DNA from: an uncultured Methanosarcinales archaeon
Lineage (GTDB): Archaea; Nanobdellota; Nanobdellia; Woesearchaeales; GW2011-AR4
Length of the DNA stretch: 64,000 bases
Direction of reading: 5' to 3'
NCBI GenBank assembly: GCA_964469645.1
Contig: CAYXZV010000003.1
Location: 8,538 to 72,537, forward strand
Positions 32,546 through 55,230 of the stretch are shown here, one piece after another. The position numbers and the translations under genes were made by a program. The notes below the pieces were generated by a model that was not told the origin of the DNA, searched no databases, and saw only the letters and a program-made list of their open reading frames with translations. How positions within the stretch are numbered: position 1 is the stretch's first letter; the number at the start of each line of letters is the position of its first letter.

Positions 32546-32661
32546 GGTGGACAGCTTTCCTAGTTTCCCATGCAAAAGCACAGTACACCTAGAAACGGAA
32601 GCTCATTTAACTTCGGAGTTCGGAATGGGATCCGGTGAACCAAGCCCCTATGGCCGTCCAA
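32546..32661 (-). rRNA. rrf: 5S ribosomal RNA (about 111-116 nt), stand-alone
   Basis: The minus-strand sequence GGACGGCCATAGGGGCTTGGTTCACCGGATCCCATTCCGAACTCCGAAGTTAAATGAGCTTCCGTTTCTAGGTGTACTGTGCTTTTGCATGGGAAACTAGGAAAGCTGTCC has the 5S loop C core (CCCAUUCCGAAC-CGGAAGUUAAG-like). The 5' GGACGGC pairs with the 3' GCUGUCC as helix I. It is followed by a T7 tract, an archaeal terminator. The upstream TATA is centred about 26 nt from the 5' end. Confidence 0.8.
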
Positions 32662-36822: not shown

Positions 36823-37496
36823 CCAATAAAGGGGTTTTTGTTGTAGCAGCTATAATAACTATAGTACTGTTAATCTCAATTTACTCCTTTAACTTATTCC
36901 TAAATACTCAAAGGGAACGTGCCATTATAGAAAGGATGGAGCAGGTCCTTGACGAATACCAGGAACTACAGGCCTTATCTTTGATGTCCGAAGTCTTCGG
37001 AAAGGAAATGACATGCATCTCATTAGAAAAAAGGTTGGCGCATATGGACAAGACTTTATGGGATACAGGAATAAAGATTGACATGTACAGGGAAGCTACA
37101 GAGAAATTTATTACAGACCCCTTTTATCTAGATCAGAAGAAGAAATTCAACAGGAACGAAATTATTTACTTGTCTATGCTGGAGAATATGAAGCAATGGT
37201 GCACATTTAACCAGACAACTATCCTTTATTTTTACAAGAAAAAAGAGGATTGTGCTGAATGTGATGCACAGTCTTTTGTTTTGACTGACCTAAATAAGGA
37301 TATAGACCAGGAGATAGCTATTTTTTCTTTTGACTCTAATTTAAAGCTCCCATCTGTAGATACTCTTGAATTATTCTATGGAATTGACTCTTTTCCATGT
37401 ATTGTGGTGGAAAACAAGACTTATTGTGGGCTGCATGACAAAGATGCGTTGATTGATTTGATTTGTGAACATGATGATATTTCGCTGTGTTCTTAA
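36816..37496 (+). CDS. Membrane-anchored protein with a CxxC motif (possible thioredoxin-like fold)
   Basis: GTG start overlapping the GT2 stop. N-terminal TM. DCAECDAQSFVL (CxxC) and a later FPCIVV (cis-Pro-like) suggest a thioredoxin-like domain. Weak. Confidence 0.3.
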   Translation: MVANKGVFVVAAIITIVLLISIYSFNLFLNTQRERAIIERMEQVLDEYQELQALSLMSEVFGKEMTCISLEKRLAHMDKTLWDTGIKIDMYREATEKFITDPFYLDQKKKFNRNEIIYLSMLENMKQWCTFNQTTILYFYKKKEDCAECDAQSFVLTDLNKDIDQEIAIFSFDSNLKLPSVDTLELFYGIDSFPCIVVENKTYCGLHDKDALIDLICEHDDISLCS

Positions 37497-37534
37497 GAAA
37501 GAGTTAAAAAAAGAGCAGTATTCCAGACTATAAT

Positions 37535-38914
37535 ATGAAGTTAAAAAATCATAAGATATTTCTATTAGTTTTCTTTGTATTTTTCATTGTAAAATTATTC
37601 TCTTTGTTTGTTGCTCATGACATATGGTGGGATTCTTCTGTATACATTGGAATGGGAAAGTATATCTATTCATTTAGCGAAGTGGGTTTATGGGAATCTT
37701 CCAGACCCTTGGTATGGCCTCTGATTTTAGGGTTTTTCTGGAAGATTGGAATAGATGTTATTTTCTTTGGGAAATTATCTATGATGTTATTCAGTTTAGG
37801 GGTATTATTCTTAACTTACCTTATTGCTCTTGATATTTTCAATAAAAAAGTTGCAATTATTTCTTCCTTATTCCTTGTTCTATCTTCTACATTCTTTCTT
37901 TTTGGAAATATCCTACATACAGAGATTCCTTCCACATTCTTTGCTTTGCTCGGGTTTTATTTATTCATGAAGAAAAAATATAATTTTTCGGGTTTGTTTT
38001 TAGGCATAGCTTTCATGACAAGATTTTTTCAGGTTTTTATATTTATTGCATTATCTTTGATATTATTTTATTTATTTATGAAGAAAAAAGTGCCTTACAA
38101 GGTATTGTTTTATTTCTCGTTGTTTTTTTTGATTCCAGTAGTTCCATACTTAATTTTAAATTATTTCCTGTATAATGATATCTTCTATCCATTTGTATTG
38201 CAAGCTTTCATGTCGAAGAATACTGGTTGGATATTTTTCCAGCCATTTTGGTTTTATTTTGTCAATCTTGTAAGAGAGAACATTTTGGTTTTATTCTCCG
38301 TTATAGGTTTATTATTCGTTTTCAAAAAACCAGATTTTAGAAAAACGTCTATTACTGTTGCATTCTTATTCATTTTTGTCCCATATACTTTAGTTGCTCA
38401 TAAAGAGATGAGATTACTGGTTCCTGCATTGCCTTTCTTGTACATTTTAACGAGTTATGGAATGCTTTATTTCATTAATTTATTTAAAAAGAATGGGACA
38501 TTGATTTTATCTTTATTGTTGTTTAGTTTTCTGATTCTTAGTACACCAAACATAAAATTCAACACATACGAAGATAGCCTAGATCAATTCTATGATTATA
38601 TCGGGACTGAAAAAATAGATGATGAGCTTTGGATATCAAATCCAGCATTTATTACATTTTCCAACGAGAGAGCAGATAAGTTAATATATTTTCCTCTTTA
38701 TAATTCAGAAAAGGTTGATGAATTGATTCTCAATATTGATGATGCAAAACATATTTTAATCAATACTTGTGATTTATTGCCTTGTCCCCCTTCAGATACT
38801 GCTTGCAATCAAAAACATGATGATTTCATTGATTTGCTTAAAGAAAATTTTAAGCTGAGGTTATATGACGGGCACGGTTCTTGTGAATATTACATCTTTA
38901 CTTCAGAGAATTAG
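37535..38914 (+). CDS. GT-C-fold membrane glycosyltransferase (ArnT/PMT-like)
   Basis: 459 aa with about 11 TM segments, an acidic first loop AHDIWWDSSVY, and a short C-terminal soluble domain. Confidence 0.45.
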   Translation: MKLKNHKIFLLVFFVFFIVKLFSLFVAHDIWWDSSVYIGMGKYIYSFSEVGLWESSRPLVWPLILGFFWKIGIDVIFFGKLSMMLFSLGVLFLTYLIALDIFNKKVAIISSLFLVLSSTFFLFGNILHTEIPSTFFALLGFYLFMKKKYNFSGLFLGIAFMTRFFQVFIFIALSLILFYLFMKKKVPYKVLFYFSLFFLIPVVPYLILNYFLYNDIFYPFVLQAFMSKNTGWIFFQPFWFYFVNLVRENILVLFSVIGLLFVFKKPDFRKTSITVAFLFIFVPYTLVAHKEMRLLVPALPFLYILTSYGMLYFINLFKKNGTLILSLLLFSFLILSTPNIKFNTYEDSLDQFYDYIGTEKIDDELWISNPAFITFSNERADKLIYFPLYNSEKVDELILNIDDAKHILINTCDLLPCPPSDTACNQKHDDFIDLLKENFKLRLYDGHGSCEYYIFTSEN

Positions 38915-38950: not shown

Positions 38951-39664
38951 ATGGAAAAAATACCAACTGGCAGCAGGATTCTGGACAAATTACTGGATGG
39001 CGGCTATGAGAGAGATGTGATTACAACCATTTATGGTCCTGCCGGTGCTGGAAAGACAAATTTGTGCCTCTTATGTGCTACAAATACTGCCAGAAATAGA
39101 AAAAAAGTTGTTTACATTGATACAGAAAATAATTTTTCTATTGAACGGTTCAAGCAGATATGTGAATCTATAAGCCAAAATTATGCAAAGCTTCTGAATA
39201 ACATTGTCTTCTTAAGGCCTGCAACCTTTGATGAGCAGAAAAAAACTTTTGAGAAGCTGAAAGATATTGTAAACAACAAAGTCGGTTTGATTGTATTTGA
39301 TTCTGTTGCAATGCTTTACCGCTTAGAGTTAGGGAAAAATGAGGATGTCTATGAAGTAAACAGGGCTTTAGGTGCTCAGCTTGCTTATCTGAAAGAGATA
39401 GCTTCCAAAAAACACATTCCGGTCTTAATCACGAACCAGGTTTATGCAGATTTCGAAGACAAAGACAAGATAAATATTGTAGGTGGAGACTTATTGAAAT
39501 ACGGCAGCAAATGCCTTTTAGAGCTACAAACAACCCCTTCCGGAAACCGTAGAGTAATAATAAAGAAGCACCGACATTTACCGGCAGAAAAAGAAATAAC
39601 CTTTAAAATAGTAGAAGGAGGCATTCTAGGGACGAAAGAAGGTCGTGGTTTCAAATTGTTCTGA
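38951..39664 (+). CDS. radB: DNA repair and recombination protein RadB
   Basis: TGSRILDKLLDGGYERDVITTIYGPAGAGKTNLCL (Walker A). The ~237-aa length is typical of the short archaeal RadA paralog RadB. Confidence 0.8.
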   Translation: MEKIPTGSRILDKLLDGGYERDVITTIYGPAGAGKTNLCLLCATNTARNRKKVVYIDTENNFSIERFKQICESISQNYAKLLNNIVFLRPATFDEQKKTFEKLKDIVNNKVGLIVFDSVAMLYRLELGKNEDVYEVNRALGAQLAYLKEIASKKHIPVLITNQVYADFEDKDKINIVGGDLLKYGSKCLLELQTTPSGNRRVIIKKHRHLPAEKEITFKIVEGGILGTKEGRGFKLF

Positions 39665-39736: not shown

Positions 39737-41236
39737 ATGGGAAATAACTCACAGTTAGATAAAGAAGCAATCAAAAAACAGCATCAAAAAGGCAAATTAA
39801 CAGCCAGAGAACGTATAGAAGCACTGTTAGATAAGAATTCTTTTACAGAGATAAATGCAGATATGGAGCTTACAAGCACAAACTACGATTTACAAGATAA
39901 AAAACAGCCTGGAGATGGGGTAATTACCGGCTATGGTAAGATAAACGAAAAACCAGTCTGCATTTATGCCCAGGATTTCATGTTCATGGGCGGCTCTATG
40001 GGAGAAATCCATAACAAAAAGATAGCCTTAATACAGGAGCATGCACTAGAGATAGGAGTTCCGATCATTGGTTTATTCGACTCAGGAGGAGCAAGGATCC
40101 AGGAGGGCATTAGCTCTTTAGATATTGGTGGAAAGATATTCAAGAACAATACTCTAGCTTCAGGAGTAATACCTCAGATCTCAGTCATCCTGGGACCATG
40201 CGCAGGCATTGCAGTATACAGCCCAGCTTTAACAGATTTCATCTTCATGACAAAGAAGATAAGCTACATGTTCATAACTGGCCCTGATGTAATAAAGACC
40301 ATAACCGGAGAAAAGATTGATTTTGAAGGTCTGGGAGGTTCAACAGCACATAATGAAAAGAGTGGAGTAGCAACTTTCATAACAGAGAACGAAAAGGAAT
40401 GTTTTGAAACAATTAAACTTCTATTAAGCTACTTGCCACAAAACAATATGGAAAATCCTCCGGTAATAAATACAAGCGACAGCAAAGAAAGATCAAACAC
40501 AAAACTAAAGGACATAATACCAAAAGACAGAAAGAAATCTTATGATGCAAAGCAGGTAATAGAAGAAATAGTAGACAAAAGCACTTTCTTAGAGGTACAG
40601 CCTTTATACGCGCAAAATGCAGTAGTAGGATTAGCAAGATTAAACAACCAATCTGTAGGAATAGTCGCTAACCAAACAAAAGTATTGGCTGGCTGCTTAG
40701 ATATTAACAGCTCAGACAAAATAGCAAGGTTTGTACGTTTTTGCGACGCTTTCAATATCCCAATAATAAATTTAGTAGACGTTACAGGATACTTACCAGG
40801 TGTCAACCAGGAGCATAATGGAATAATAAGGCACGGTGCAAAGGTTCTTTACGCTTACTCTGAAGCAACAGTGCCAAAAATAAGTTTAGTGATGAGAAAA
40901 GCTTACGGTGGAGCATATATTGCCCTAGTAAGCAAAGATATGGGCTTTGACAAGGTTATAGCATGGCCGGATGCAGAAATAGCTGTGATGGGCCCTGAAC
41001 AAGCAGTAGATATTATCCACAGGAAAGAACTAAAAGCAAATAGCAAAATAAAAAACCAAAAAGTAAAGGAATACACAGAAAAATTCCTTAATCCGCATGA
41101 AGCTGCAAAGCACGGCAAAGTAGACATAATAACAGAAAAAAAGGACACGAGGAAAACATTAATCAATTGCTTGGAAATGCTAATTACAAAGAGGGAAAGA
41201 AGACCGGCAAAAAAGCACGGAAACATCCCTTTGTAA
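39737..41236 (+). CDS. Acyl-CoA carboxylase carboxyltransferase subunit (PccB/AccD-like)
   Basis: LTARERIEALLDKNSFTEI...GYGKINEKPVCIYAQDFMFMGGSMGE...GGARIQEG is the hallmark of biotin-dependent carboxyltransferases. 499 aa. Confidence 0.8.
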   Translation: MGNNSQLDKEAIKKQHQKGKLTARERIEALLDKNSFTEINADMELTSTNYDLQDKKQPGDGVITGYGKINEKPVCIYAQDFMFMGGSMGEIHNKKIALIQEHALEIGVPIIGLFDSGGARIQEGISSLDIGGKIFKNNTLASGVIPQISVILGPCAGIAVYSPALTDFIFMTKKISYMFITGPDVIKTITGEKIDFEGLGGSTAHNEKSGVATFITENEKECFETIKLLLSYLPQNNMENPPVINTSDSKERSNTKLKDIIPKDRKKSYDAKQVIEEIVDKSTFLEVQPLYAQNAVVGLARLNNQSVGIVANQTKVLAGCLDINSSDKIARFVRFCDAFNIPIINLVDVTGYLPGVNQEHNGIIRHGAKVLYAYSEATVPKISLVMRKAYGGAYIALVSKDMGFDKVIAWPDAEIAVMGPEQAVDIIHRKELKANSKIKNQKVKEYTEKFLNPHEAAKHGKVDIITEKKDTRKTLINCLEMLITKRERRPAKKHGNIPL

Positions 41237-41237
41237 A

Positions 41238-41627
41238 ATGGAAGATATTACAATTAAGGTAGACGGCAAGGACTATGATGTCAAGGTTGAAGAAACAGAT
41301 GATGGAAAAATATTAGTCCATTGCAACGGAGATGTCTACGAAGTTGAGTCGACGCAAGACAAAGAAGCATCCATCTTCAACAGGGTAAAAAAAGAGAAAA
41401 TAGAAGACTCCGGAAAGTCAGTCATAACAGCGCCATTGCCAGGAACAATCTACGAAATCAAAGTAAAAAAAGGAGATAAGGTACAACAAGGCCAATCATT
41501 GATAAAATTAATAGCAATGAAGATGGAAAACGATATAACGGCGAAAAAGGCAGGGATAGTAAAAGAAATAAAAACAAAAAAAGATGAAAGTGTAAGTAAA
41601 GATGATATATTGATAATAATTGAATAA
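41238..41627 (+). CDS. Biotin carboxyl carrier protein
   Basis: C-terminal biotinyl domain with AMKM (IAMKMENDI). 129 aa. Confidence 0.75.
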   Translation: MEDITIKVDGKDYDVKVEETDDGKILVHCNGDVYEVESTQDKEASIFNRVKKEKIEDSGKSVITAPLPGTIYEIKVKKGDKVQQGQSLIKLIAMKMENDITAKKAGIVKEIKTKKDESVSKDDILIIIE

Positions 41628-41645
41628 GACCAAGGGGGAGATTAA

Positions 41646-42233
41646 ATGGCAAAGAAAAAAACAATTAAATCAAAAACTGTGAGGGGGGAAACAGTACCAG
41701 GTTCAAACCTGAAACCATTGATTTTTGCAGCATTGTTTGCAGCATTAACTGCAGCAGTAGCACCGTTCAAGATACCATTAGGCTTTACACCGGTGCCAAT
41801 TACATTGCAGACATTAGTGGTCTTAATGTCCGGAGCGATGCTAGGCCCCTATTATGGTGCCTTATCAATGATTCTTTATGTAGTTGTAGGCGCTCTGGGA
41901 TTGCCTGTATTTGCCGGAGGAGGCTCAGGAATAGGAGCAGTACTAGGACCGACAGGAGGGTATCTGATAAGCTATTTCGTAGCAGCGTATGCAATAGGCA
42001 AGATATTGCAATTAAGAAAGCAGCCAAAATTCCTGGATTATGTGTTTGCCATGGTTATAGGGACAATAATAATCTACGTCCTGGGAGCAGGATGGGGCAT
42101 GGTCGTCACAGGTCTTGGAGTAGCAGCAATATTAGCTGGATGGGTATTACCATTCGTAATTGGAGACACAATAAAGCTATTGGCAGCAGCATACATAGCT
42201 AAAAATGTCGACATAAAGAAATATATGCGATGA
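41646..42233 (+). CDS. bioY: BioY biotin ECF-transporter S component
   Basis: 195 aa, 6 TM, with the BioY-like pattern AALTAAVAPFKIPLGFTPVPITLQTLVVLMSG. Confidence 0.75.
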   Translation: MAKKKTIKSKTVRGETVPGSNLKPLIFAALFAALTAAVAPFKIPLGFTPVPITLQTLVVLMSGAMLGPYYGALSMILYVVVGALGLPVFAGGGSGIGAVLGPTGGYLISYFVAAYAIGKILQLRKQPKFLDYVFAMVIGTIIIYVLGAGWGMVVTGLGVAAILAGWVLPFVIGDTIKLLAAAYIAKNVDIKKYMR

Positions 42234-42955
42234 CTCAAAAACTTTTTTTATTTGATATTTTTTCTTATAGCTGCATGAATTGCTTAAGGTCATTAGAGTA
42301 CATTAAACAAATAAATGACAAATACAAGAGATATGGCCTAAAAACAATCCTGATACACCCTCCCGAATGGGAGTTTGAGAAAGACAGCAGCAATATCCTA
42401 AAAGCAGCAAAAAAATACAAAATAAAGATTCCAATACTGATTGACAATAACAAAAAACTGGTCAAGAAGCTAAAAATAAATTTCTGGCCAACTCAGGTAT
42501 TGATAAACAACAACAAAACAGCATACAAACACGTTGGAGAAGGAAATTATAAGATATTAGAAAACAAAATAAGAGGTGTACTGGGAGATAAATCAAAAAG
42601 ATTATTTGAGAAAGAACCAAAATATACCAAATTCCAAACATTGTACACAGGTAAGAAGAAGCAAAGAAAAGGTAGTATTATCAAAAAAGGTAATTGGAAG
42701 CAAAACAATGAATCTTTGCAGGGAAAAGGATCATTGACAATAAAAACAAAAGGAAAGATAGTAAGTTTCGTAGCGAGATCATTAATTAATAAAACAGCAG
42801 ATATTAAGATTAGAATAAATAACAAATCAATTAAAAATTTAAAGATTAATGAACCAAGATTATATAAAATAATTGAATTAAAAAGCAATGAAGAAAAAAC
42901 ATTGAACCTAGAAACCAAACAAAAAATAACAGTTTATTCATTTGCGTTCCAATGA
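42230..42955 (+). CDS. Thioredoxin-like (TlpA/redoxin-type) protein
   Basis: FDIFSYSCMNCL (CxxC) and ...INFWPTQVLI (cis-Pro region) fit a redoxin fold, followed by a Lys-rich tail. It is inserted between bioY and the ECF ATPase with overlapping stops. Confidence 0.45.
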   Translation: MTQKLFLFDIFSYSCMNCLRSLEYIKQINDKYKRYGLKTILIHPPEWEFEKDSSNILKAAKKYKIKIPILIDNNKKLVKKLKINFWPTQVLINNNKTAYKHVGEGNYKILENKIRGVLGDKSKRLFEKEPKYTKFQTLYTGKKKQRKGSIIKKGNWKQNNESLQGKGSLTIKTKGKIVSFVARSLINKTADIKIRINNKSIKNLKINEPRLYKIIELKSNEEKTLNLETKQKITVYSFAFQ

Positions 42956-43650
42956 TCAAGATAAAAGACCTATATTTCAAGTATGAAGATGAATTAGTAC
43001 TTAATAATATAAATCTAAAACTAGAAGATTTAAGTTACACTGCAGTCATAGGGGCAAACGGTTCCGGAAAAACAACTTTAGCAAAACATCTTAATGCTCT
43101 GCTCCTGCCAACAAAAGGATCTGTAATTATAGACAACATAGATACAAAAAAAGACCAGTTCAATATAAGAAAAAACGTTGGTTTTGTGTTCCAGAATCCT
43201 GAAGATCAATTAGTTCATTCTATCGTCGAGGAAGACGTGGCATATGGGTTAGAAAATTTAGGCATGGAAACAAATTTAATGAAAAATAGGGTTAAAAATA
43301 TTCTAAAACTATTAAATATTGAATATTTGGCAAAAAAGAACGTAAACATGATTTCTGCAGGGCAAAAACAGCTTACAGCACTAGCTGGAGTCTTAGTGAT
43401 GGAACCAAAATATATTGTCTTTGACGAACCGACAACAACATTAGACAACAAAAACAAGAGAAACATCATGGATACAATAACTAAACTGAACAAAAAGAAC
43501 AAAATTGGGATTATTCTTGTTACAAATATCTTAGATGACATAAAATACGCTGAAAATGTTGTCGTTATGAGTAAAGGAAAGATAATTTTTAATGATAAAA
43601 GATCAAAACTGAATAAATTTATACTAAAAAAGGCTGGTTTGGATGTTTAA
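42952..43650 (+). CDS. ECF-transporter ATPase (EcfA/CbiO/BioM-like)
   Basis: Walker A GANGSGKTTLAK, ABC signature SAGQKQ, Walker B IVFDEPTTTLD. Confidence 0.8.
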   Translation: MIKIKDLYFKYEDELVLNNINLKLEDLSYTAVIGANGSGKTTLAKHLNALLLPTKGSVIIDNIDTKKDQFNIRKNVGFVFQNPEDQLVHSIVEEDVAYGLENLGMETNLMKNRVKNILKLLNIEYLAKKNVNMISAGQKQLTALAGVLVMEPKYIVFDEPTTTLDNKNKRNIMDTITKLNKKNKIGIILVTNILDDIKYAENVVVMSKGKIIFNDKRSKLNKFILKKAGLDV

Positions 43651-44368
43651 GAAGCTAACATTTGGGCAATATACTTACAAGAGCACAATAATGCATAGAT
43701 TAGACCCAAGAATAAAGATTATAGCAGTTGTTTTGTTGAGTGCACTTGCATTTTTGCTAGACTCATATTACAAGTTCGGTATTTTTTCTTTATTTATACT
43801 CTCATTAATACTTTTGTCAAAAATAAATTTCTCTGCTTTGATAAGAAATCTAAGGCCATTCTTCTTTATTTTTTTCTTTATACTGCTAATGTACATTTTC
43901 TTCTCAAGAAACGAAATAGACCAGGGAATAAGAACAATATGGAAATTCATATTATTCATTACAATAGCATCCATCCTGACGTTTACAACAACCATAAACA
44001 ACATGGTCACTGCAATTGAAAAACTCCTAAATCCGTTAAAAATAATAAACATTAATTCTAAAACTATTGCTTTACTAATAGCTTTAACAATAAGATTTAT
44101 ACCTTCATTATTCTTATATGCTGACAGGATAAGGGATGCGAGGCTGGCAAGGCTAGGAAACTTAAAGAAGCCAAAGCACATAAAACTCTTATTCCTGCCA
44201 TTGATGGATAAGGTATTCAAAACAGCTTCCAATCTAAGTGATGCAATGCTTGCAAGAAATTATTCAGAAAAAAGAGCAGCTTATTTTAATGTGATACATC
44301 TAAAGAATTATGATCATGTTTCTTTCGTTTTATTATTAATTTTCATAGTTTTTATTTGGATAGTATAA
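43643..44368 (+). CDS. ECF-transporter T component (EcfT/CbiQ/BioN-like)
   Basis: 241 aa polytopic protein with an ARLARLGN-type conserved loop (DRIRDARLARLGN). It overlaps the ATPase gene. Confidence 0.65.
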   Translation: MFKKLTFGQYTYKSTIMHRLDPRIKIIAVVLLSALAFLLDSYYKFGIFSLFILSLILLSKINFSALIRNLRPFFFIFFFILLMYIFFSRNEIDQGIRTIWKFILFITIASILTFTTTINNMVTAIEKLLNPLKIININSKTIALLIALTIRFIPSLFLYADRIRDARLARLGNLKKPKHIKLLFLPLMDKVFKTASNLSDAMLARNYSEKRAAYFNVIHLKNYDHVSFVLLLIFIVFIWIV

Positions 44369-44385
44369 GAAATAGTATACCTTAT

Positions 44386-44613
44386 CTATTGCCTGGCAGT
44401 CTTCTGGCCGAACAATATGCCCGTCAAGACATTCAAAGCCCATGCCTGCAGCACATTTATAGTGTAAATATCTCCAAAAACAAAGTTCCACAACAAAGCA
44501 ACTGGAAAAGCCAGAACCAAACCAACTATACCACTAATTAACACAACCAAGGCTATTGTATAAGCCATTTCCAGCATTCTTTTTAAGAATGGTACTTCGT
44601 CTAAAAATGTCAT
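44386..44613 (-). CDS. Small 2-TM membrane protein (hypothetical)
   Basis: 75 aa with two clear hydrophobic helices. It is the only plausible ORF in the intergenic gap. Confidence 0.3.
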   Translation of the reverse strand: MTFLDEVPFLKRMLEMAYTIALVVLISGIVGLVLAFPVALLWNFVFGDIYTINVLQAWALNVLTGILFGQKTARQ

Positions 44614-44708
44614 TTATATCTGTTCTTAGTAATATTATCCTCTTTTTAAACATTTTGATTAACAACCATTTCAATAATTTTAAATATAAACTGTATTTAA
44701 GCTAAACC

Positions 44709-45353
44709 ATGAAGCGAAAACATAGCCGAAGGATAATAAAAAAACGTTTCCAGGTTGCTATTTTCGGCTCTGCAAGGATAAAAAGAGGAGACTCAAGATA
44801 TAAGCTCATTTATACACTGGCAAAGATGTTGGCACAGGAAGGGATAGATATAGTAACAGGTGGAGGTCCAGGGTTAATGGATGCTGCCTCCAGAGGGCAT
44901 CACGCAGGAAGAAAAAACAAGAAAACATATAGTGTAGGCCTTACAATACACCTACCAAAAGAACAAAAAGAGAGCTATCATTTGGATGTCAAAAAAGATT
45001 TCAACAAATTCTCAAAAAGGCTGGATAAGTTCATAAACTTATCGGATGCAGTAATTGTTGCGCCAGGGGGCGTAGGAACGACCTTGGAAATGATGTATGT
45101 CTGGCAGCTGGTGCAGGTAAAACACTCTTGCGAAATACCCATTATCTTGTTCGGAAAGATGTGGGAAGGTTTTGTAGATTGGATCAAGAAAGGACCATTG
45201 AAAAATAAATTCCTGGACAAAAAAGAGTTAGAACTCCTATACCACACAAGGAACTGTTCTGAAGCGATGAAAGTAATAAATCTAGCATATAAGGAATACA
45301 AAAAAGGTAGAAAGAACATATGCCTAAACATTAAAAAGTACAAGGTCAAATGA
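44709..45353 (+). CDS. LOG-family (TIGR00730) nucleotide-binding protein
   Basis: VAIFGSARI...IVTGGGPGLMDAASRG...VIVAPGGVGTTLEM matches the LOG motifs. Confidence 0.8.
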   Translation: MKRKHSRRIIKKRFQVAIFGSARIKRGDSRYKLIYTLAKMLAQEGIDIVTGGGPGLMDAASRGHHAGRKNKKTYSVGLTIHLPKEQKESYHLDVKKDFNKFSKRLDKFINLSDAVIVAPGGVGTTLEMMYVWQLVQVKHSCEIPIILFGKMWEGFVDWIKKGPLKNKFLDKKELELLYHTRNCSEAMKVINLAYKEYKKGRKNICLNIKKYKVK

Positions 45354-45748
45354 AAAACACAACAGAGGTACGTGTTTATTATGCAGACACCGATCATGGC
45401 AGCGTAGTTTATTATGCAAACTACCTAAAGTGGTTCGAGATAGGGAGAACAGAAGTTTTGAGGAAATTGGGTTTTAATTATTCATATTATGAAAAGAAGA
45501 ATATCATTGCTCCAGTGGTAGAGGTAAAGTGCAATTACAATGAACCTGCAAAATACAATGATCTCATTATAATAAAGACAGCGGTGGAAAAGATAGGCAA
45601 CAGCAGTATTAAGTTCAGTTACAAAATAATAAGGAAGGAGGATAAAAAACTATTGGCAGAAGGATATACTATAAATGTTTTTGTTGACATGAAAACAAAA
45701 AAATCAACTAGCATACCTGAAGAGTTAAGGAAAGCATTAAAAAAATAA
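45350..45748 (+). CDS. YbgC/4HBT-family acyl-CoA thioesterase (hotdog fold)
   Basis: VRVYYADTDHGSVVYYANYLKWFEIGRTE has the catalytic Asp context of YbgC-like thioesterases. Confidence 0.7.
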   Translation: MKNTTEVRVYYADTDHGSVVYYANYLKWFEIGRTEVLRKLGFNYSYYEKKNIIAPVVEVKCNYNEPAKYNDLIIIKTAVEKIGNSSIKFSYKIIRKEDKKLLAEGYTINVFVDMKTKKSTSIPEELRKALKK

Positions 45749-46546
45749 TTAGGATTTTTCTAATTTGTAAATCACAACTTTTGCATCTGAATATACTTTT
45801 TCAAAACCCACTATTGGTTGTAACTTCAAAATTTTATACATAATTGATTTATTATTTACATAATAAATGTTTTCAACAATATCATATTCCACTCCGCTAA
45901 TGTTATAGATGATTCTGGATTTACCATACTCACTATTAGTTACCAATAAATATTGAGAATTGTAATTTTGCATTAGATTTATTGCTTTGATAGGATCGGT
46001 TGTAGTTAAAATTAATCCAACATTAATAATATCTTCATGGTTACTCAATTCCCCTGCTTCTTCGGTATTGAATTTTTTACCTGCATGAACACTTGCAACC
46101 GTAGTCAAAATATCTTGTGACGGATTATATGCAATCACATCTCTTTTTCCAATGCCTCTTACCATATGTCCATAATCCCACCATGTTGTAATTATTGCGT
46201 CCTTAGATGAATTTTCTTTTATCCAATCCATAGAACTTCTGAATTCTGGCATATATGCTCCGGTGAAGGTATAGTCGTCCCACACATATCTTACTTGGTT
46301 CTTATACCCATCTTCAGAAATTACCTTCGTCGTACTATCGACAGTTTCATTACCGCACCATATCTCAGCATACATTCTTTCTAATTGTATTGAATTCGAT
46401 TTTGGATTTTCTATTGCAACATCTTCAGCCCATGATTTAATCCATCTTTGACAAGCCTGCACTTCTTCTTTAGAGATAACCTCTTTTTGACACCCTACAT
46501 TAAAGATTATTAAAAACAGAATTAAAATTAGATATAAATCTTTCAT
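45749..46546 (-). CDS. Secreted/lipid-anchored protein with an STT3/AglB C-terminal (WWDYG) domain-like region
   Basis: Signal peptide with a lipobox-like LIIFNVGC. The internal ITTWWDYGHMVRGIGKRDVIAYNPS and ...ASVHAGKKFNTEEAGELSNHEDIINVGLIL parallel the STT3/AglB segments WWDYGYxI...R-x-hhh-D/N and ...[23 protein letters not shown]. Only 265 aa, with no TM core. Confidence 0.5.
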   Translation of the reverse strand: MKDLYLILILFLIIFNVGCQKEVISKEEVQACQRWIKSWAEDVAIENPKSNSIQLERMYAEIWCGNETVDSTTKVISEDGYKNQVRYVWDDYTFTGAYMPEFRSSMDWIKENSSKDAIITTWWDYGHMVRGIGKRDVIAYNPSQDILTTVASVHAGKKFNTEEAGELSNHEDIINVGLILTTTDPIKAINLMQNYNSQYLLVTNSEYGKSRIIYNISGVEYDIVENIYYVNNKSIMYKILKLQPIVGFEKVYSDAKVVIYKLEKS

Positions 46547-46590
46547 ACTAATTATTCAGTTTATCCAATATATAAACATTCCTATACAAA

Positions 46591-47319
46591 TTAAACCACA
46601 AATATGTCTCCTTCGACTATTTTCTTAAGTTTACCATTACTTAACTTTAGCATCAGATTACAATCACTATCTACATCAACAGCCTCCCCAACATAAGTTC
46701 CGGATAAAGTTTTAGCTCTTATTTTCCTCCCAAGAGTATGTGAATATTTCTTCCAGATTTTTATTATTTCAGTATATTTTTTATTAGTGTAATATTTATA
46801 CAATGAATTGAATTCTTTTATTATTGCTTTTGAAAGTTTTTTGATATCATAATTCTTATTGGTTTCTAATTTTAATGAAGTTGTTTTTTTGATGAGGTTT
46901 TTTCCAAATTTCTTTTGATTAACATTAACTCCAATTCCAATTAATGCATAATTATTATTTTTATTTGTAATTGTCTCTGTCAAAATGCCACAAACCTTTT
47001 TATCATCTATTAAAACGTCGTTTGGCCATTTTACCTGAGCATTTAATTTTGTGATTTTCTTTATTGTTTTGGCAACACTTACTGCAGCAATAAATGTAAG
47101 GTATCTCACATTATCCAAATCATCTTCTTTCAAAGCAATAGTCATGTACAATCCCCCCAATTCAGAACTCCATCCACGATTGAACTTCCCGCGGCCTTTT
47201 TTCTGCTTCTCTGCAACCACTACAATATTATATTTGCCCCCCTTAATTAGAATCTTAGCCTTGTCGTTAGTTGAAGAAAGGGTATTGAAATGATAGAATT
47301 CAAAAACATTATCATTCAT
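46591..47319 (-). CDS. birA: Biotin--[acetyl-CoA-carboxylase] ligase
   Basis: GRGKFNRGWSSELGGLYMTIAL is the BirA GRGRxGRxW-type biotin-binding loop. 242 aa with no N-terminal HTH. Confidence 0.75.
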   Translation of the reverse strand: MNDNVFEFYHFNTLSSTNDKAKILIKGGKYNIVVVAEKQKKGRGKFNRGWSSELGGLYMTIALKEDDLDNVRYLTFIAAVSVAKTIKKITKLNAQVKWPNDVLIDDKKVCGILTETITNKNNNYALIGIGVNVNQKKFGKNLIKKTTSLKLETNKNYDIKKLSKAIIKEFNSLYKYYTNKKYTEIIKIWKKYSHTLGRKIRAKTLSGTYVGEAVDVDSDCNLMLKLSNGKLKKIVEGDIFVV

Positions 47320-49216
47320 TTTGCATTAATTCTTGCCTACCTGCCATAACCCAAGGATTTGGTTTATTTCCATTATGATTGCTTTTTTTCTCCATATACT
47401 TAGCTACGGCAGTTGTGATGATGATTTTCTTTTGTCCGTTCGTCAGTCCTTTCTTATGCAAGCAGTATTTCTTAACAGAACTAAGGATGTCATTTTTTTC
47501 TATGAAAGCCGTCGTAAATCTGCCTCTGACAAAGTTTTTGTTATTCAGAACAGCAAGGTGGAAAGGTATTGTTGTTTCAACTCCCTTGATAATATATTCT
47601 TTAAGGGCTCCTTTCATCCTAGCTATTGCTTCATGCCTATTAGCACCGTAGCATATAAGTAATGACAGTAACGAATCGTAATCTGGTAGCACTTTGTAGC
47701 CCTGATGACATATACTGTTGACCCTGATGCCAGGTCCTCCAGGAGGAAGATAATTATTTATAGCTCCTATAGATGGAGAAAAGTTATTTATCGGGTCTTC
47801 TGCATTAATCCTACATTCTATCGCCCATCCTTCCAATTTGATATGATCTTGATTAAATGCAAGCTTCGCACCGGAAGCTAGCTTAATCTGCTCCTTGACC
47901 AGATCGACACCAGTCACCATTTCAGTGACACCATGCTCAACCTGTATCCTCGTATTCACCTCTATGAAATAGAAGTTTTTATTCTTATCCAGCAAGAATT
48001 CCACTGTACCAGCACCTTCATATTTTGCAGCTGATACTGCCTTTACAGCAGCGTCTCCCATTTTCTCCCTTAACTCATCATTCAAGGCGGGACTCGGACT
48101 TTCTTCCACAAGCTTCTGATGCTTTCTCTGTACACTGCAATCCCTTTCCCCGAGATGGACAACCTTGCCATACTGGTCAGCTAATATCTGGAACTCTATG
48201 TGTTTTGGATTCTCAAGGTATTTTTCCATATATAGTCTTTTGTCTCCAAAGGACAATAATGCTTCTGCCTGTGCACTTTCATACGCTTTCTCCAATTCTT
48301 CTACTTCCCTTATAATCCTCATCCCTTTTCCACCGCCACCTGCAGCAGCCTTAATTATGATCGGAAATCCTAATTTGCTTGCTAACTTAAGCGCATGCTT
48401 CTTGCTTTTTAATGACTTCATTATCCCACCTATAACAGGGACTTTTGCCTTAAGCACGGTTTTCTTTGCTCTTACTTTATCTCCGAGAAGTTCTATTGTC
48501 CTTGATGAGGGTCCTATAAACTTAATTTTGTTCCTCTCACATAGCTTGGCAAACTTAACATTCTCCGCTAAAAACCCGTAACCAGGGTGTATTGCATCCG
48601 ATTTCGTTTTTTTAGCGATACTTATAATTTTGTTAATATCAAGATAACTTATAGCTGGTCCGATGTAACATGCCTTGTCTGCAAACTTTACTGCTAGAGT
48701 GTCCTTATCTGGCTTAGAATATACTAGCACAGTCTCTATGCCCAACTCGCGGCATGCCCTTATGACTCTCAAGGCAATCTCTCCACGATTGGCAATAAGA
48801 ACTCTCTTAAACTTTTTTTCCTTGGATAGTACGGTATACTCTTTCTCAGAAAAGTTTGCAACGCTAAGCCCTTTAGCAAGCATGTCAATAAACGTCTGAG
48901 AAGACTTGCTGCCAACTATTCTCTTCAGTTCAGATCGATTTATATTAGGAATCTTACCGATAACGCTGGAAGTTATAGTATCCCCGAGTTCAGCCAAATT
49001 TGTTTTTTTAAAAATCTTTTTTCTCTTGTCTACTTCCACTATATTGCTTTTTACTAGGTCTTCAACCTCATTGTAGACTAAAGGGGCTGTCTTTTTTGCG
49101 TGTTTAAACGCCTTTTTAAAGATATTATAAGAATATTCAGCAGGTGTCAAACTTTTGTTTAGGGCTGAAACTAACTTCTTCTTGATTCCAAATATGCCTT
49201 TCTTCCTTCTTGTCAT
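47312..49216 (-). CDS. accC: Biotin carboxylase (AccC/PycA-type ATP-grasp) with an uncertain N-terminal extension
   Basis: The core starts at KRVLIANRGEIALRVIRACRELGIETV and includes the ATP-grasp and C-terminal BC domains. The first ~110 aa of the track ORF are Lys-rich and unlike AccC, so the true start may be the internal Met (MLAKGL). Confidence 0.8.
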   Translation of the reverse strand: MTRRKKGIFGIKKKLVSALNKSLTPAEYSYNIFKKAFKHAKKTAPLVYNEVEDLVKSNIVEVDKRKKIFKKTNLAELGDTITSSVIGKIPNINRSELKRIVGSKSSQTFIDMLAKGLSVANFSEKEYTVLSKEKKFKRVLIANRGEIALRVIRACRELGIETVLVYSKPDKDTLAVKFADKACYIGPAISYLDINKIISIAKKTKSDAIHPGYGFLAENVKFAKLCERNKIKFIGPSSRTIELLGDKVRAKKTVLKAKVPVIGGIMKSLKSKKHALKLASKLGFPIIIKAAAGGGGKGMRIIREVEELEKAYESAQAEALLSFGDKRLYMEKYLENPKHIEFQILADQYGKVVHLGERDCSVQRKHQKLVEESPSPALNDELREKMGDAAVKAVSAAKYEGAGTVEFLLDKNKNFYFIEVNTRIQVEHGVTEMVTGVDLVKEQIKLASGAKLAFNQDHIKLEGWAIECRINAEDPINNFSPSIGAINNYLPPGGPGIRVNSICHQGYKVLPDYDSLLSLLICYGANRHEAIARMKGALKEYIIKGVETTIPFHLAVLNNKNFVRGRFTTAFIEKNDILSSVKKYCLHKKGLTNGQKKIIITTAVAKYMEKKSNHNGNKPNPWVMAGRQELMQNE

Positions 49217-49275: not shown

Positions 49276-52059
49276 CTACTCTTTCTCGCCAAGAGATCCA
49301 ATAACATCCCCTAACTTGTCAAAATTAGCTCCAAAAACAACCCAATCTCCCTTATTCATCGCATCAAGGATTGCATCATAATAATCATTTGCTTCTTTAA
49401 TTAAATCTTCTTCTGATTTATCCACACTTGCATCTCCTACAATTTCCACAGTCCTTGATGTTGACGATCCAAAAAGTTTTTGCAGACCTGTAGCCAGGTC
49501 TTTTTCCATAATAACTCTTTCCCCATCAGAAACAATTACTCTCTTTAATTCAGGTAGTTGTCCTTTCTCAGCCTGCAGATATAGTGGCTCTATGTAAAGC
49601 AAACTATTTTCAATAGGTATCACAAGTAGGTTTCCTCTAGTTACTCTGGAACCCTGCTGGCCCCATAAAGTGAGCTGCTGGGATATTTCAGAATCCTGAT
49701 CAATCCTTGCTTCTATCTGTAAAGGGCCATAAACCAGCTTATCCTTCGGAAATTTGAAAAGCAATAATTTGCCATAATCCTCCCCATCAGACCTTGCAGC
49801 AAACCAAGCATTCATATTGTCTTTCTTAAGGGGAGTAAATGTAGTCATCAAAACAAACTCTTCTTTTCTTTCTCCGGGTAATTTCATTATTATATAATAG
49901 GGCTCAACTTCTATCTGCTGACCAGTTCCATAAATCTCACTAGGTATCTCCCATGCATCTTCCTTGTTATAGAAGACAGTTGGATCCTCCATATGGTATG
50001 TGCTGTAGATTGAAGATTGCACTTTGAAAAGGTCTTCCGGATATCTTATGTGTTCTTTCAGAGATTCTGGAAATTCATCAAAACTCTTGAATTGTCCAGG
50101 AAATATATTTGCATACACTTTCATCAAAGGATCCTTTTCATCGATAATATAATAGGTAACATCTCCATTGTATGCATCGACAACGATCTTAACTGAATTC
50201 CTGATATAATTTATCCTTCCGAACTTTTGAGAGTAGGGGAAATTACCTGTAACAGTATAAGCATCCTGGATCCACAATAACTTGCCTTCATTGATGACTA
50301 TGTAAGGGTCATCATCAAGAAGAAGGAATGGTGTTATCTTTGATATCCTCTCCTGGATATTTCTTAGAAACATCATTCTACTCTCTGAAGTTATATCAGA
50401 CGATAAAAGGATCTTAATATCTGCAAATCTTACTGCCATGAAAAGTTTTTTGACAAAAGAGTCCAACACTACACCGCCAGCACCGTCATAGTTTATGTAT
50501 TCGTTAGTGTTTCCTTTTGGAAAATCGAATTCGTCCGTATTAGTGTTTACAAGAATAAAATCATTCTCATTTTCGCCATAATAAATCCTTGGCTGGTCTA
50601 TTTTAAGGTCATTTCCTGCAACGGTATATGATGGAGGGATGTCCTTAACAAGATAATTCGGGAGACCTTGATCAGTAACTTTGTTTACTGGACTTACAAC
50701 AACTCCAAATCCATGGCTATAGACCATATGCAGATTTACCCATGTCTTCGCATTATCAGCTATCTGGTTCTGGTCAAGTTCACGTGGAGCAAGCATGACC
50801 TGGGTATATTTTCCGTTAATACTATACCTATCTATATCAATTCCCGATAGATCATAATAAAGCCTTATCTCTTGAGTCTGCTTATATGTCTGTGTTAATG
50901 GCCTGTAATCAAGGATCCTTACGTTGTCTATAGTCTCACTTGACTTATCAATAACATTGGCATCCAGGGTCTGCTCAACATCAAAATCTCTCTCTTCGAC
51001 ATCCAGACCGTACGCAATCTTTGTAAATTTTATGTTATTCTCAAGGTAAGGCTTCTCTAAGTTGATCTCATTCGGGCTTACCTTAAGCGACTGCACAATC
51101 TGTGGTATAATTGATTGACCAACAACGACGAAAGCCACATACAAAACCAAAACAAAAATGACAAGGTGTCTTTTCCCTATCTTCTGTGATTTCGAAAAGA
51201 AAAAAATCCATATATAAAAAAGAATCGCGACAAAAATAGCAAAGACCATCAGGAACTTTACCACAGGTATAAAAATAACAACATCTGTATAGCCGGCACC
51301 TACAACTATTCCGCTCTCTGAGTACATAACAAGAAATCTCTCAAGGTAATGCCTGGCCGCAAGTAGAAGAAATATAAGCGAGAAAAGTATAGCCATATGA
51401 GTCATAGCGGATTTCTTAACCTTCGAGATTTCCTGCCAAAAATTGAATGATTTGTAGACTGTGTTAGTATTTGGATCAACCTGAGGGGTAAAAAAAGAGA
51501 TTATGATGTTATAGAGATAATATAGAAGCACAACTATTGTTGTAATTATAACAGCCGCAAATACAAACCTCCACAAAACAAGAAAGAATGGAAGAGAAAA
51601 AACATAGAAAGCCACATCTTTTCCGAGTATTGGATCCTGAAGACCAAATGGAACCTGGTTTAGGTATTGTAGGAATGTAAGCCATGCTGCTGATGCCGAG
51701 AGTCCTTGAAACAGCGACAGCAGGGCAATTATTGAGATTCCTATTTTAAAAGATATCTTGGATACTTGAAACTTGGAAGCTATCCATAAGTTTATCGCTG
51801 CAAATATGAAGAAAGACAATGCTGCTACAATAAAAAAGATTATTTTTGCAAATAAGCTTATGGTAAATATTTCTTTGAATTCTAAAGCGGAAAACCAAAG
51901 ATAATCAGTATAAAGGGCCACAATACCTGAGATTGAGAACACAAGAAGTACTACAATGAATAAGAATACATATTGCAGATAGCTTCTTATATTAGACATA
52001 CAAGCGAGTACAACCTTCATATTTTTAAAAGTTACTGAAAAAACAGCATTATTTTTCAA
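49276..52059 (-). CDS. Large polytopic membrane protein, UPF0182-like
   Basis: 927 aa. N-terminal ~300 aa has about 7 TM segments and is followed by a very large soluble region. Size and topology match the UPF0182 family (recollection; no motif check possible). Confidence 0.4.
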   Translation of the reverse strand: MKNNAVFSVTFKNMKVVLACMSNIRSYLQYVFLFIVVLLVFSISGIVALYTDYLWFSALEFKEIFTISLFAKIIFFIVAALSFFIFAAINLWIASKFQVSKISFKIGISIIALLSLFQGLSASAAWLTFLQYLNQVPFGLQDPILGKDVAFYVFSLPFFLVLWRFVFAAVIITTIVVLLYYLYNIIISFFTPQVDPNTNTVYKSFNFWQEISKVKKSAMTHMAILFSLIFLLLAARHYLERFLVMYSESGIVVGAGYTDVVIFIPVVKFLMVFAIFVAILFYIWIFFFSKSQKIGKRHLVIFVLVLYVAFVVVGQSIIPQIVQSLKVSPNEINLEKPYLENNIKFTKIAYGLDVEERDFDVEQTLDANVIDKSSETIDNVRILDYRPLTQTYKQTQEIRLYYDLSGIDIDRYSINGKYTQVMLAPRELDQNQIADNAKTWVNLHMVYSHGFGVVVSPVNKVTDQGLPNYLVKDIPPSYTVAGNDLKIDQPRIYYGENENDFILVNTNTDEFDFPKGNTNEYINYDGAGGVVLDSFVKKLFMAVRFADIKILLSSDITSESRMMFLRNIQERISKITPFLLLDDDPYIVINEGKLLWIQDAYTVTGNFPYSQKFGRINYIRNSVKIVVDAYNGDVTYYIIDEKDPLMKVYANIFPGQFKSFDEFPESLKEHIRYPEDLFKVQSSIYSTYHMEDPTVFYNKEDAWEIPSEIYGTGQQIEVEPYYIIMKLPGERKEEFVLMTTFTPLKKDNMNAWFAARSDGEDYGKLLLFKFPKDKLVYGPLQIEARIDQDSEISQQLTLWGQQGSRVTRGNLLVIPIENSLLYIEPLYLQAEKGQLPELKRVIVSDGERVIMEKDLATGLQKLFGSSTSRTVEIVGDASVDKSEEDLIKEANDYYDAILDAMNKGDWVVFGANFDKLGDVIGSLGEKE

Positions 52060-52095: not shown

Positions 52096-52593
52096 GTGAA
52101 TTCAATAGACAAACTTAAGGACGGGAAAGGAGAAATAGACATAAAGGGCATTAAAAAAACAATACCATATGAAAACCCTTTCTTGTTCATTGATCGTGTT
52201 TTAAAGATAGATAAAAAGAACATTGTCGCAATAAAAAGAGTGAAAGGAGATGAGAGTTTCCTCAAAGGTCATTTCAAGGATTTCCCCATAATGCCAGGAG
52301 CTTTAATTATTGAGGGTCTGGGCCAAGCAGCAACAATGCTCATCAGGTATAACATACCACATCATCAAGAAAAAGATATTTTAGCCTATAAGGTAACTGG
52401 CACTAAATTTTTCAGACCGACCTTCCCTGGCCACACTTTAAGATTTGAAGTGAAACTGCTATTGATGTTCAAGAAGATTGCCTTTGTGAAAGGAAAGGTT
52501 TTTAGGAAAGATAAATTGGTAGCAAAAGTAAATATGGCCTTAGCTATTGTCAGTAAAAAACAGTTTAGGGGAAGATACAGTAGGAAAAAGTGA
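52096..52593 (+). CDS. fabZ: 3-hydroxyacyl-thioester dehydratase, FabZ-like hotdog
   Basis: IPYENPFLFIDRVLKID...ESFLKGHFKDFPIMPGALIIEGLGQAATML matches the FabZ core (PhRyPfLLvDrV...GHFP..P.mPGvL..EalaQ). GTG start. Confidence 0.7.
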   Translation: MNSIDKLKDGKGEIDIKGIKKTIPYENPFLFIDRVLKIDKKNIVAIKRVKGDESFLKGHFKDFPIMPGALIIEGLGQAATMLIRYNIPHHQEKDILAYKVTGTKFFRPTFPGHTLRFEVKLLLMFKKIAFVKGKVFRKDKLVAKVNMALAIVSKKQFRGRYSRKK

Positions 52594-52620
52594 TTGATGT
52601 AAATTCTTAAAGGTGTAAAA

Positions 52621-53748
52621 ATGTATGTAAAAGGAGTAGGTATGACAAAATTCGCTGCCCATAGTGCAAGTAGTCAGGAGCTTTGCTACGAAGCTGTTAT
52701 GGAAGCCCTGGAAGATGCTAATATGTCTATATCTGATATAGACGAGATAATATTGTCAAAGGGAGACTCGGTAAAGGATGGGGAAAGGCAAAGGCTTTTC
52801 CCAGGAGTCTTGAGTAGCATATTGGGGGAAGAAAACATACCCATCATCAGGGTTACGGCTGCATGCAGTGGTGGTGGCAGTGCTTTCTGGGATGCGATGC
52901 ACTCAGACAAGAGGAACATACTAGTGCTCGGGATAGAAAAGTTAAGCAAAGGACTTACTAAATACACCACAGATAATTTTATGATGGCTGCCGAGAGGGT
53001 ATATGAACAACTGGAAGGCCTTAATTTTCCTGCTCAAAATGCTTTAATCGCTCAGCAATATATGATGAAATATGGCGCAACTTCAGATGATCTCGCGTTA
53101 GTAGCGTTGAAAAATCACGAAAATGCATATAACAATCCAAAAGCGAGGTTCTATGGCAAAAAAGTCACTTTGGATATGATAAAAAAGTCACCTGTTATTG
53201 CTTCTCCATTGAGATTGTTTGATTGTAGCATATCTGTAGACGGTGCTGCAGCGGCTATAATAAGTAAAGAAGAAAGTGATATCAAAATAATCGGTTCATC
53301 CCTATATGCGGGTAGATTGTCTCCTTTTGAGAGTATTGATATGACAACTTGGGATGCTGCTGTTCTTGCAGCAAAAGCTGCTTATAATGAAGCAGGAATA
53401 ACCCATGAAGATGTTGATTTTATTGAATTGCATGATGCATTTACACCAGTAGAGCTTATATCTTATGAGGATCTGGGATTTGCAAAGAAAGGTGAAGGAA
53501 GAAAACTGATTAAAAAGGGAACGACAAAAATCAATGGCGCGCTTCCTGTAAACACTTCTGGTGGATTGAAGGCTAAGGGTCATCCTGTAAGTGCAACCGG
53601 GATTTCTCAAATTTATGAGATTGTTAATCAGATGAGAAGCAAATGTGGTAAAAGGCAGATAGATAGGAACAAAATCGGGCTTGCCCACAATGTAGGAGGA
53701 GCAGGTAGTACTGCTACAGTTAATATATTCAAGAACATAGGTGGTTAA
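52621..53748 (+). CDS. Thiolase-like (archaeal acetyl-CoA acetyltransferase / SCP-x-type) protein, paralog 1
   Basis: MYVKGVGMTKF... with active-site Cys context ITAACSGGGSAF. 375 aa. Confidence 0.75.
   Translation: MYVKGVGMTKFAAHSASSQELCYEAVMEALEDANMSISDIDEIILSKGDSVKDGERQRLFPGVLSSILGEENIPIIRVTAACSGGGSAFWDAMHSDKRNILVLGIEKLSKGLTKYTTDNFMMAAERVYEQLEGLNFPAQNALIAQQYMMKYGATSDDLALVALKNHENAYNNPKARFYGKKVTLDMIKKSPVIASPLRLFDCSISVDGAAAAIISKEESDIKIIGSSLYAGRLSPFESIDMTTWDAAVLAAKAAYNEAGITHEDVDFIELHDAFTPVELISYEDLGFAKKGEGRKLIKKGTTKINGALPVNTSGGLKAKGHPVSATGISQIYEIVNQMRSKCGKRQIDRNKIGLAHNVGGAGSTATVNIFKNIGG
53001..53280 (+). repeat. Gene-conversion tract shared with the paralogous thiolase at 55627-55905
   Basis: About 280 bp at >95% nucleotide identity, including a ~145-bp perfectly identical core (CAGCAATATATGATGAAATATGGCGCAACTTCAGATGATCTCGCG...). 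The flanking gene sequence is strongly diverged. Confidence 0.7.
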
Positions 53749-55217: not shown

Positions 55218-55230
55218 CTTTTGAGGCACT

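Follow-up and report, generated by a model that had tools for sequence, protein, structure and literature searches.

A stand-alone, N-terminally anchored homolog of the oligosaccharyltransferase C-terminal core in a Woesearchaeales contig

The 64-kb stretch of DNA analysed here (the window) encodes an intact 265-residue protein that is separately encoded, anchored at its N-terminus, and built around a central-core domain of the oligosaccharyltransferase (OST) type. By alignment, both motifs of the OST Ser/Thr pocket are conserved in this protein, which is a member of a large family of such proteins. Each catalytic OST subunit (STT3, AglB, or PglB) is described as one polypeptide, in which a multi-spanning GT-C half is joined to a C-terminal WWDYG domain. 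The GT-C half, with about 13 transmembrane (TM) segments and two DXD-type acidic motifs, holds the metal-binding residues and the site for the lipid-linked glycan. In the protein described here the 13-TM catalytic domain is absent, and the family carries a signal peptide with a Cys, or a single anchor, instead. Since the GT-C half is missing, the protein could not transfer a glycan alone, and, judged from its sequence, glycan transfer by it is unlikely. We consider it an even call that the protein binds Asn-X-Ser/Thr-type segments without glycosylating them, and passes them on, or reports their binding, to a membrane partner. No description of stand-alone WWDYG proteins was found in the open-access literature or in curated databases. 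Measured against curated libraries and that literature, the free, tethered release of the OST core and its reuse in sensors are new, whereas the domain itself is well known.

The gene and its surroundings

An earlier note on this DNA had proposed a stand-alone WWDYG-domain protein that lacks a GT-C transmembrane core, and both points were confirmed. The open reading frame is a complete coding sequence with its own ATG (Table 1), the ORF list and hydropathy analysis place its single hydrophobic segment at the N-terminus, and no multi-spanning GT-C domain is present. It holds the sole WWDYG in the six-frame translation of the window, within residues 121-141, TWWDYGHMVRGIGKRDVIAYN. As for the proposed signal peptide with a lipobox-like Cys, the hydrophobic segment does end at Cys19, and the -1 and -2 positions of F-N-V-G-C19 fit the pattern [LVI][ASTVI][GAS]C, but the Asn at -3 is atypical, making the box imperfect.

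Table 1. Features of the gene for the 265-residue protein and of its upstream flank (window coordinates)
Feature	Position	Strand	Basis
Complete coding sequence, 265 aa; stand-alone tethered homolog of the OST C-terminal core	45749..46546	minus	ORF list, ATG start
Residues 1-19; hydrophobic N-terminal signal/anchor ending in lipobox-like FNVGC19	46490..46546	minus	hydropathy script
Residues 20-96; subfamily-specific two-helix extension (Cys32, Cys64), then family-wide beta-hairpin before the core	46259..46489	minus	AlphaFold2 secondary structure; 60-sequence alignment; profile alignment to STT3A residues 432-544
Residues 97-265; homolog of the CC (central core) unit found in the C-terminal domains of STT3/AglB/PglB	45752..46258	minus	
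WWDYG motif, W122-G126	46169..46183	minus	invariant in 60-sequence alignment
DK-type motif, E206-Y-G-K209-S-R-I-I213; helix following the QYLLV strand	45908..45931	minus	
TTTATATA; candidate archaeal TATA box, 23-30 nt 5′ of the ATG	46569..46576	minus	sequence

The gene directly upstream, on the same strand, is of the biotin-protein-ligase type (BPL_LplA_LipB and BPL_C) and ends 44 nt before the ATG, and the convergent downstream gene encodes a 4HBT thioesterase. The octamer TTTATATA is not enriched in the AT-rich window (9 found versus 10.65 expected), and is weak evidence that the gene possibly has its own promoter. Across different marine samples, 12 metagenome contigs encode the identical protein, with unchanged neighbours. 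The proteins are present in two mesopelagic size fractions of Tara (0.1-0.22 µm and 0.22-1.6 µm), and all of those checked were singletons or belonged to two-member clusters at 90% identity. Together with the RadB gene, the 34.5% GC, and the Woesearchaeota and Nanoarchaeota names borne by homologs of the 677-residue protein described below, this occurrence suggests a marine DPANN host of the Woesearchaeota type.

These observations bear on whether the protein could be a non-functional remnant, either the 3′ piece of an aglB that was disrupted or a pseudogene in decay, a reading that we find barely conceivable. Although only the C-terminal third of an OST is present, no membrane-domain coding sequence lies upstream, and the gene is therefore not the tail of a frameshifted aglB. 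The start codon and signal/anchor segment, the unrelated upstream gene, the 12 contigs, and the same short architecture with invariant motifs in hundreds of relatives, with the compact predicted fold (pLDDT 93), refute this reading, including the broken-aglB origin that the earlier note had raised as a concern.

Homology to the OST C-terminal core

Searched as a single sequence, the protein matched the C-terminal domain of yeast Stt3 (PDB 2lgz; E=2.9e-6, residues 97-173), and further PDB matches were STT3 chains from human, yeast, and other sources. The PDB and Pfam matches are confined to residues 97-174 onward. Scores against family models fell below their cut-offs, with 16.4 bits (cut-off 27) for PF22627 AglB_core-like and 18 bits (cut-off 450) for TIGR04154 archaeo_STT3, and none of the local Pfam or NCBIfam models reached its cut-off on any family member tested. 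The Pfam models PF22627 and PF21436 (STT3-PglB_core) matched 25-26 of 60 family members at E<=0.01, and TIGR04154 matched 43 of the 60.

A profile built from the 60 relatives gave E=4.6e-17 against STT3A and 7e-10 against AfAglB-S2. The profile-STT3 alignment begins at the beta-hairpin, whose STT3 counterpart comes after the last TM helix, takes in WWDYG, and reaches the helix of the DK motif. An AlphaFold2 model computed from the 60-relative alignment is compact (mean pLDDT 93, pTM 0.84), and its only significant Foldseek matches in the PDB were STT3, AglB, PglB, and DPY19. By these comparisons the protein has an OST C-terminal globular domain with the central-core fold, its closest OST examples being the C-terminal domain from AglB-S2 of A. 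fulgidus (PDB 3vu0), yeast Stt3 (2lgz), and human STT3A/B. The likeness to STT3 thus extends well beyond the pentapeptide, as had been proposed, and the profile and fold statistics rule out a chance occurrence of WWDYG. Two STT3-like segments had been assigned initially; the WWDYG segment holds, but the second was slightly mis-registered, the counterpart of the STT3 segment lying at residues ~178-202 and not at 155-167.

A family of stand-alone WWDYG proteins

Stand-alone ORFs of the same kind were found widely outside the window. When 1.84 billion cluster representatives were searched exhaustively with phmmer, 300 proteins scored below E=1e-3, of which 127 fell below 1e-10. E-values to members of the family ranged from 1e-49 to 1e-9. 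A peptide-pattern scan of JGI metagenomes yielded 214 confirmed relatives, and the best 80 loci are nearly all ORFs of 200-290 residues. Some family members carry Nanoarchaeota or Woesearchaeota labels.

A hydropathy and motif script was used to sort 165 sequences. A signal peptide with a terminal lipobox-like [ILFV][SA]GC, in the same place as that of the 265-residue protein, was present in one third (55/165), including canonical-looking boxes such as ISGC, LSGC, and FSGC. A single N-terminal hydrophobic segment was found in 68, no N-terminal hydrophobic segment in 26 (fragments or soluble proteins), and multiple TM segments in 16. An STT3-like TM domain was absent from all 165; in a 499-residue relative with nine TM segments (P0153), the STT3 match is restricted to the C-terminal part. 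The pattern WWDYGHM was matched twice in genomes, both times by ordinary full-length AglBs (866 and 1277 residues).

The family can be recognised by a length of ~200-290 residues, an N-terminal signal or anchor, a beta-hairpin, and WWDYG(H)(M)I..G...R, followed by PS..IL, D/ExxK after a Y..V strand, and a C-terminal Y.D...IY. All invariant and nearly invariant positions are present in the 265-residue protein. Unlike the C-terminal domains of OSTs, the family shows specific conservation of R135, P142-S143, Y252, and D254, and the 265-residue protein has a Cys-containing N-terminal extension. A few short members, such as P0154 and P0036, carry the JGI label “asparagine N-glycosylation enzyme membrane subunit Stt3”, a label that probably over-predicts OSTs in metagenome annotations.

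Gene neighbourhoods were surveyed at the best 80 of the 214 metagenome loci (~60 non-redundant), where ORFs were called with a simple longest-ORF script, 125 genes at positions ±1 and ±2 were compared with Pfam, and the 25 commonest families were listed. Only GNAT (5), an HTH (3), and PIN (3) families recurred; no GT-C, STT3, or glycosyltransferase family was among the recurrent ones. No conserved operon partner emerged from this census. Adjacency to HTH regulators (L012, L016, L017, and three census loci; 3-5 of ~60 loci) was judged not clearly above chance. The neighbourhood of the closest homolog (P0002, 52% identity) is unrelated, and no synteny with it was found.

Conservation of the Ser/Thr pocket

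In OSTs, the pocket that receives the +2 Ser/Thr of the sequon combines the WWDYG residues Trp-Trp-Asp with the second signature residue of the DK/MI motif, the DK motif being defined as DXXKXXX(M/I); isolated AglB C-terminal domains crystallise with this pocket pre-formed (PMC3703281). When 170 relatives were placed on the family HMM, the WWDYG columns held W in 165, W in 160, D in 157, Y in 155, and G in 160. The DK columns, which fall on the STT3 segment “DDINKFLWMVRI” in the profile-PDB alignment, held D in 120 or E in 23 (D/E in 143) and K in 92 or I in 34, with I/F/L/M four residues later. The 265-residue protein conforms to the DK pattern as E206-x-x-K209-x-x-x-I213, with Glu as the first signature residue. 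Overall identity among the ~170 relatives is roughly 25%, yet WWDYG and the DK-type motif are kept, a pattern which, at the level of the alignment, indicates selection on the pocket in the stand-alone family. The +2 sequon pocket would accordingly be formed, as in OSTs, by the WWD of WWDYG and the Lys and Ile of the DK-type motif.

The residue that follows WWDYG is also conserved, being H in 110 of the 170 relatives. In full OSTs this residue and nearby loops contact the donor sugar, a contact made in the PglB-LLO complex by the equivalent Tyr. Its conservation could mean that the domain still works within the transfer reaction, counter to a function in binding without glycosylation. It would also suit a lectin-like module that binds a reducing-end sugar or a dolichol-phosphate glycan rather than a peptide. 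However, OSTs have most of their donor-binding site in the TM domain, a part missing here, and the two best-conserved motifs of the family are those defining the Ser/Thr pocket; a lectin-like role is, in our estimate, very improbable. Sequon binding is the reading that we prefer, with the reservation that OST peptide binding normally also needs external loop 5 of the TM domain, so the free domain may bind weakly.

An STT3-like GT-C protein in the same window

The earlier note had pointed to WWDYG-less GT-C proteins in the window as possible partners, among them a 677-residue protein (7020-9053, minus strand). This polytopic protein has no Pfam, NCBIfam, or PDB sequence match. Its 720 homologs (50-81% identity), named “hypothetical” or “GT39”, are from Woesearchaeota and Nanoarchaeota. 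In Foldseek searches, its AlphaFold model (pLDDT 89, pTM 0.91) matched yeast and human STT3 best (E ~1e-9 over 600-700 columns), followed by DPY19, PglB, and ArnT. On the evidence of the model, the protein is an STT3-like GT-C, and an invariant LEDDDxWxH is present in the first external loop of its family. This uncharacterised protein may be the main GT-C in these DPANN archaea.

The 677-residue family presents the reverse case to that of the 265-residue protein, in that the catalytic half is present and the sequon pocket is absent. Residues 566-677 form an alpha/beta domain of its own, which resembles the OST core in its helix-strand-loop topology, the loop VFSF-VVDGPTIG standing where OSTs have WWDYG after the helix and strand. 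None of the 52 aligned homologs lacks this domain, which has FxNNGPxIG in the position of WWDYG, and shorter homologs (~605 residues) differ only by the loss of two TM helices (residues 393-465). The GT-C nature that the earlier note had suggested for this protein agrees with its predicted fold, but a partner without a C-terminal domain is ruled out by the model and the 52 homologs.

A two-piece OST was weighed in this light. In it, the tethered WWDYG domain would dock on a WWDYG-less GT-C protein (the 677-residue protein, for example, or the PMT_2 protein encoded at 37535-38914) and provide sequon recognition in trans. Strict conservation of the pocket residues and of the residue after WWDYG is what such an arrangement would call for; the window also encodes the STT3-like GT-C, a very widespread protein in Woesearchaeota and Nanoarchaeota, lineages with which some family members are labelled; and no canonical aglB is found in the 64-kb window. 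Against it, the domain retained by the 677-residue protein and its 52 homologs lies at the WWDYG position, so that the site for a WWDYG domain acting in trans is occupied. The two genes are 37 kb apart, profile comparison (hhalign) of the stand-alone family with the 677-residue and the 459-residue PMT_2 proteins was insignificant, no GT-C, STT3, or glycosyltransferase gene recurred among the 125 flanking genes, and the closest homolog lies in an unrelated neighbourhood. The split or trans-acting subunit suggested by the earlier note thus gained nothing from these comparisons, and we regard it as unlikely, although the gene for a partner could lie anywhere in the genome.

Fusions and operons with signalling modules

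About eight family representatives, of around 490 residues and including P0082, P0088, P0119, and P0134, combine a HAAS-like helical N-terminus, five TM segments, and the WWDYG domain. Four were compared with Pfam; three scored above the HAAS cut-off, and P0134 reached 22.6 bits (cut-off 27). A ninth such fusion was found at L082 (186-1667). Because the number of TM segments is odd, the WWDYG domain of these proteins would lie outside the cell. At a further locus (L012, 10001-11926), genes for PadR and a HAAS-4TM protein come after that of an anchored stand-alone member, and overlapping stops and starts join the three in an operon. HAAS-linked forms make up ~5% of the family representatives.

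For membrane or envelope signals, the HAAS-PadR dyad has been put forward as another route besides two-component systems, with sensor domains fused to HAAS (PMC11237479). Of the features of this dyad, the roughly eight fused relatives have the HAAS-like part, and the one operon member has PadR and HAAS neighbours; the 265-residue protein, in contrast, lacks a HAAS domain, and neither a HAAS nor a PadR gene was found in the 64-kb window. A WWDYG domain in HAAS-5TM proteins and in a PadR operon would be a new type of sensor domain for the dyad.

Three other relatives (P0110, P0135, and P0087) have different fusions. In two, the WWDYG domain is N-terminal to an M50-like (site-2-protease-like) multi-TM region, and in one it is C-terminal to a metallo-beta-lactamase domain. 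The M50 matches are sub-threshold (20.5 and 23.2 bits versus 27.2), and suggest an M50-like membrane partner domain in some relatives. Taken with the HaoB similarity described below, the HAAS fusions, the L012 operon, and the M50-like and metallo-beta-lactamase fusions suggest that the free WWDYG domain is an extracytoplasmic binding or sensor module rather than an enzyme.

Similarity to HaoB

HaoB, encoded by the conserved orf2 of the hao (hydroxylamine oxidoreductase) operon in ammonia oxidisers, is periplasmic, has a single anchor, and is of unknown function. It is bacterial and always adjoins haoA. The model TIGR04392 (haoB_nitrify) matched 41 of the 60 family members, with a best E of 1e-10 and scores of 15-37 bits versus a cut-off of 200; the match covers the WWDYG region (model positions ~88-223 of 320). 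Members that match include P0160, P0155, P0159, and P0161, and a precomputed PF27869 (HaoB_nitrify) assignment is present on several family members. HaoB is like the stand-alone family in being a short protein with similarity over the WWDYG region, and, on these profile matches, it probably contains a domain like the OST C-terminal core. No such HaoB-OST link was found in the open-access literature, and the similarity provides a hypothesis on the structure of HaoB.

HaoA and HaoB are co-expressed, and HaoB has been listed as an “unknown [HaoA]3-associated protein” (PMC3772326). By analogy, the 265-residue protein might be a dedicated assembly or maturation partner of one secreted protein, with the OST-derived fold serving as a protein-binding scaffold; the listing and the HaoB matches in the family are consistent with such a role. 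However, the 265-residue protein itself has no match to TIGR04392 even at E<=10, and no hao genes lie beside its gene, the neighbours being the ligase-type and thioesterase genes. The census and the comparison with P0002 revealed no conserved neighbour that could be the client, and the invariance of WWDYG favours a ligand with a conserved small motif over lineage-specific clients. A dedicated partner of this kind seems distinctly unlikely.

A proposed function for the free domain

Returning to the preferred reading, in which the protein binds sequon-type segments and does not glycosylate them, the following mechanism can be put forward. The 265-residue protein would sit on the outside of the cytoplasmic membrane, attached through a lipid-modified Cys19 or through an uncleaved N-terminal helix. 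As a non-catalytic reader, it would bind Asn-X-Ser/Thr-type (beta-hydroxy) segments that exported proteins expose at the cell surface, and the bound segments would be presented or reported to a membrane partner. In some relatives the partner would be hard-wired, as the HAAS-5TM transducer of the HAAS-PadR dyad. Peptide binding by the free domain, lipid anchoring, and the identity of any partner in the Woesearchaeales host are inferred.

A more general possibility, which we consider rather doubtful, is a machine of two parts in which the free WWDYG/DK domain, as a detachable head, reads sequons and docks on a membrane partner. Sequon reading would then take place away from the usual single-chain OST. 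If the partner is a WWDYG-less STT3-like GT-C, the machine would be a split or hetero-oligomeric glycosyltransferase; if it is a HAAS-type or S2P-type transducer, it would survey unglycosylated sequons at the archaeal cell surface. 

The family shows that the sequon-recognition half was set free repeatedly in evolution as a surface-tethered protein, and was wired to signalling modules as well. It suggests that archaea may monitor or chaperone N-X-S/T sites. The stand-alone proteins also provide a natural reagent of soluble size, with which sequon recognition could be studied apart from catalysis.

Other features of the window

A plus-strand cluster at 35584-38914 encodes a GT2 glycosyltransferase (412 residues), a 226-residue protein without a family match, and the PMT_2-type GT-C (459 residues), and is followed by a RadB gene (38951-39664). 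The GT2/PMT_2 cluster resembles the neighbourhood of AglD-like glycosyltransferases and arCOG00563 in archaeal glycosylation (PMC5898192).

The segments 39737-49216 and 52096-57127 are DPANN-like and unusually rich in acyl-CoA and biotin metabolism. They encode a carboxyltransferase, a BCCP, BioY with ECF components, the BPL/BirA-type ligase, thiolases, an enoyl-CoA hydratase, a FabA-like dehydratase, and a DUF362 protein, as well as a biotin carboxylase of 634 residues with an extra N-terminal stretch of ~135 residues. A hydrophobic ORF of 75 residues (44386-44613, minus strand), with no Pfam match on record, was also annotated as a gene, at the matching position, on those related contigs that are long enough to include it (seven loci). 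Between the two segments lies a UPF0182 membrane protein (49276-52059, minus strand; Pfam E=3.6e-277), a 927-residue ORF that is 914 residues long on related contigs. No rRNA was detected in the window other than a 5S rRNA gene at 32546-32661 (minus strand; Rfam, 71.2 bits), and ARAGORN reported no tRNA genes in the 64 kb. The GC content of the window is 34.5%.
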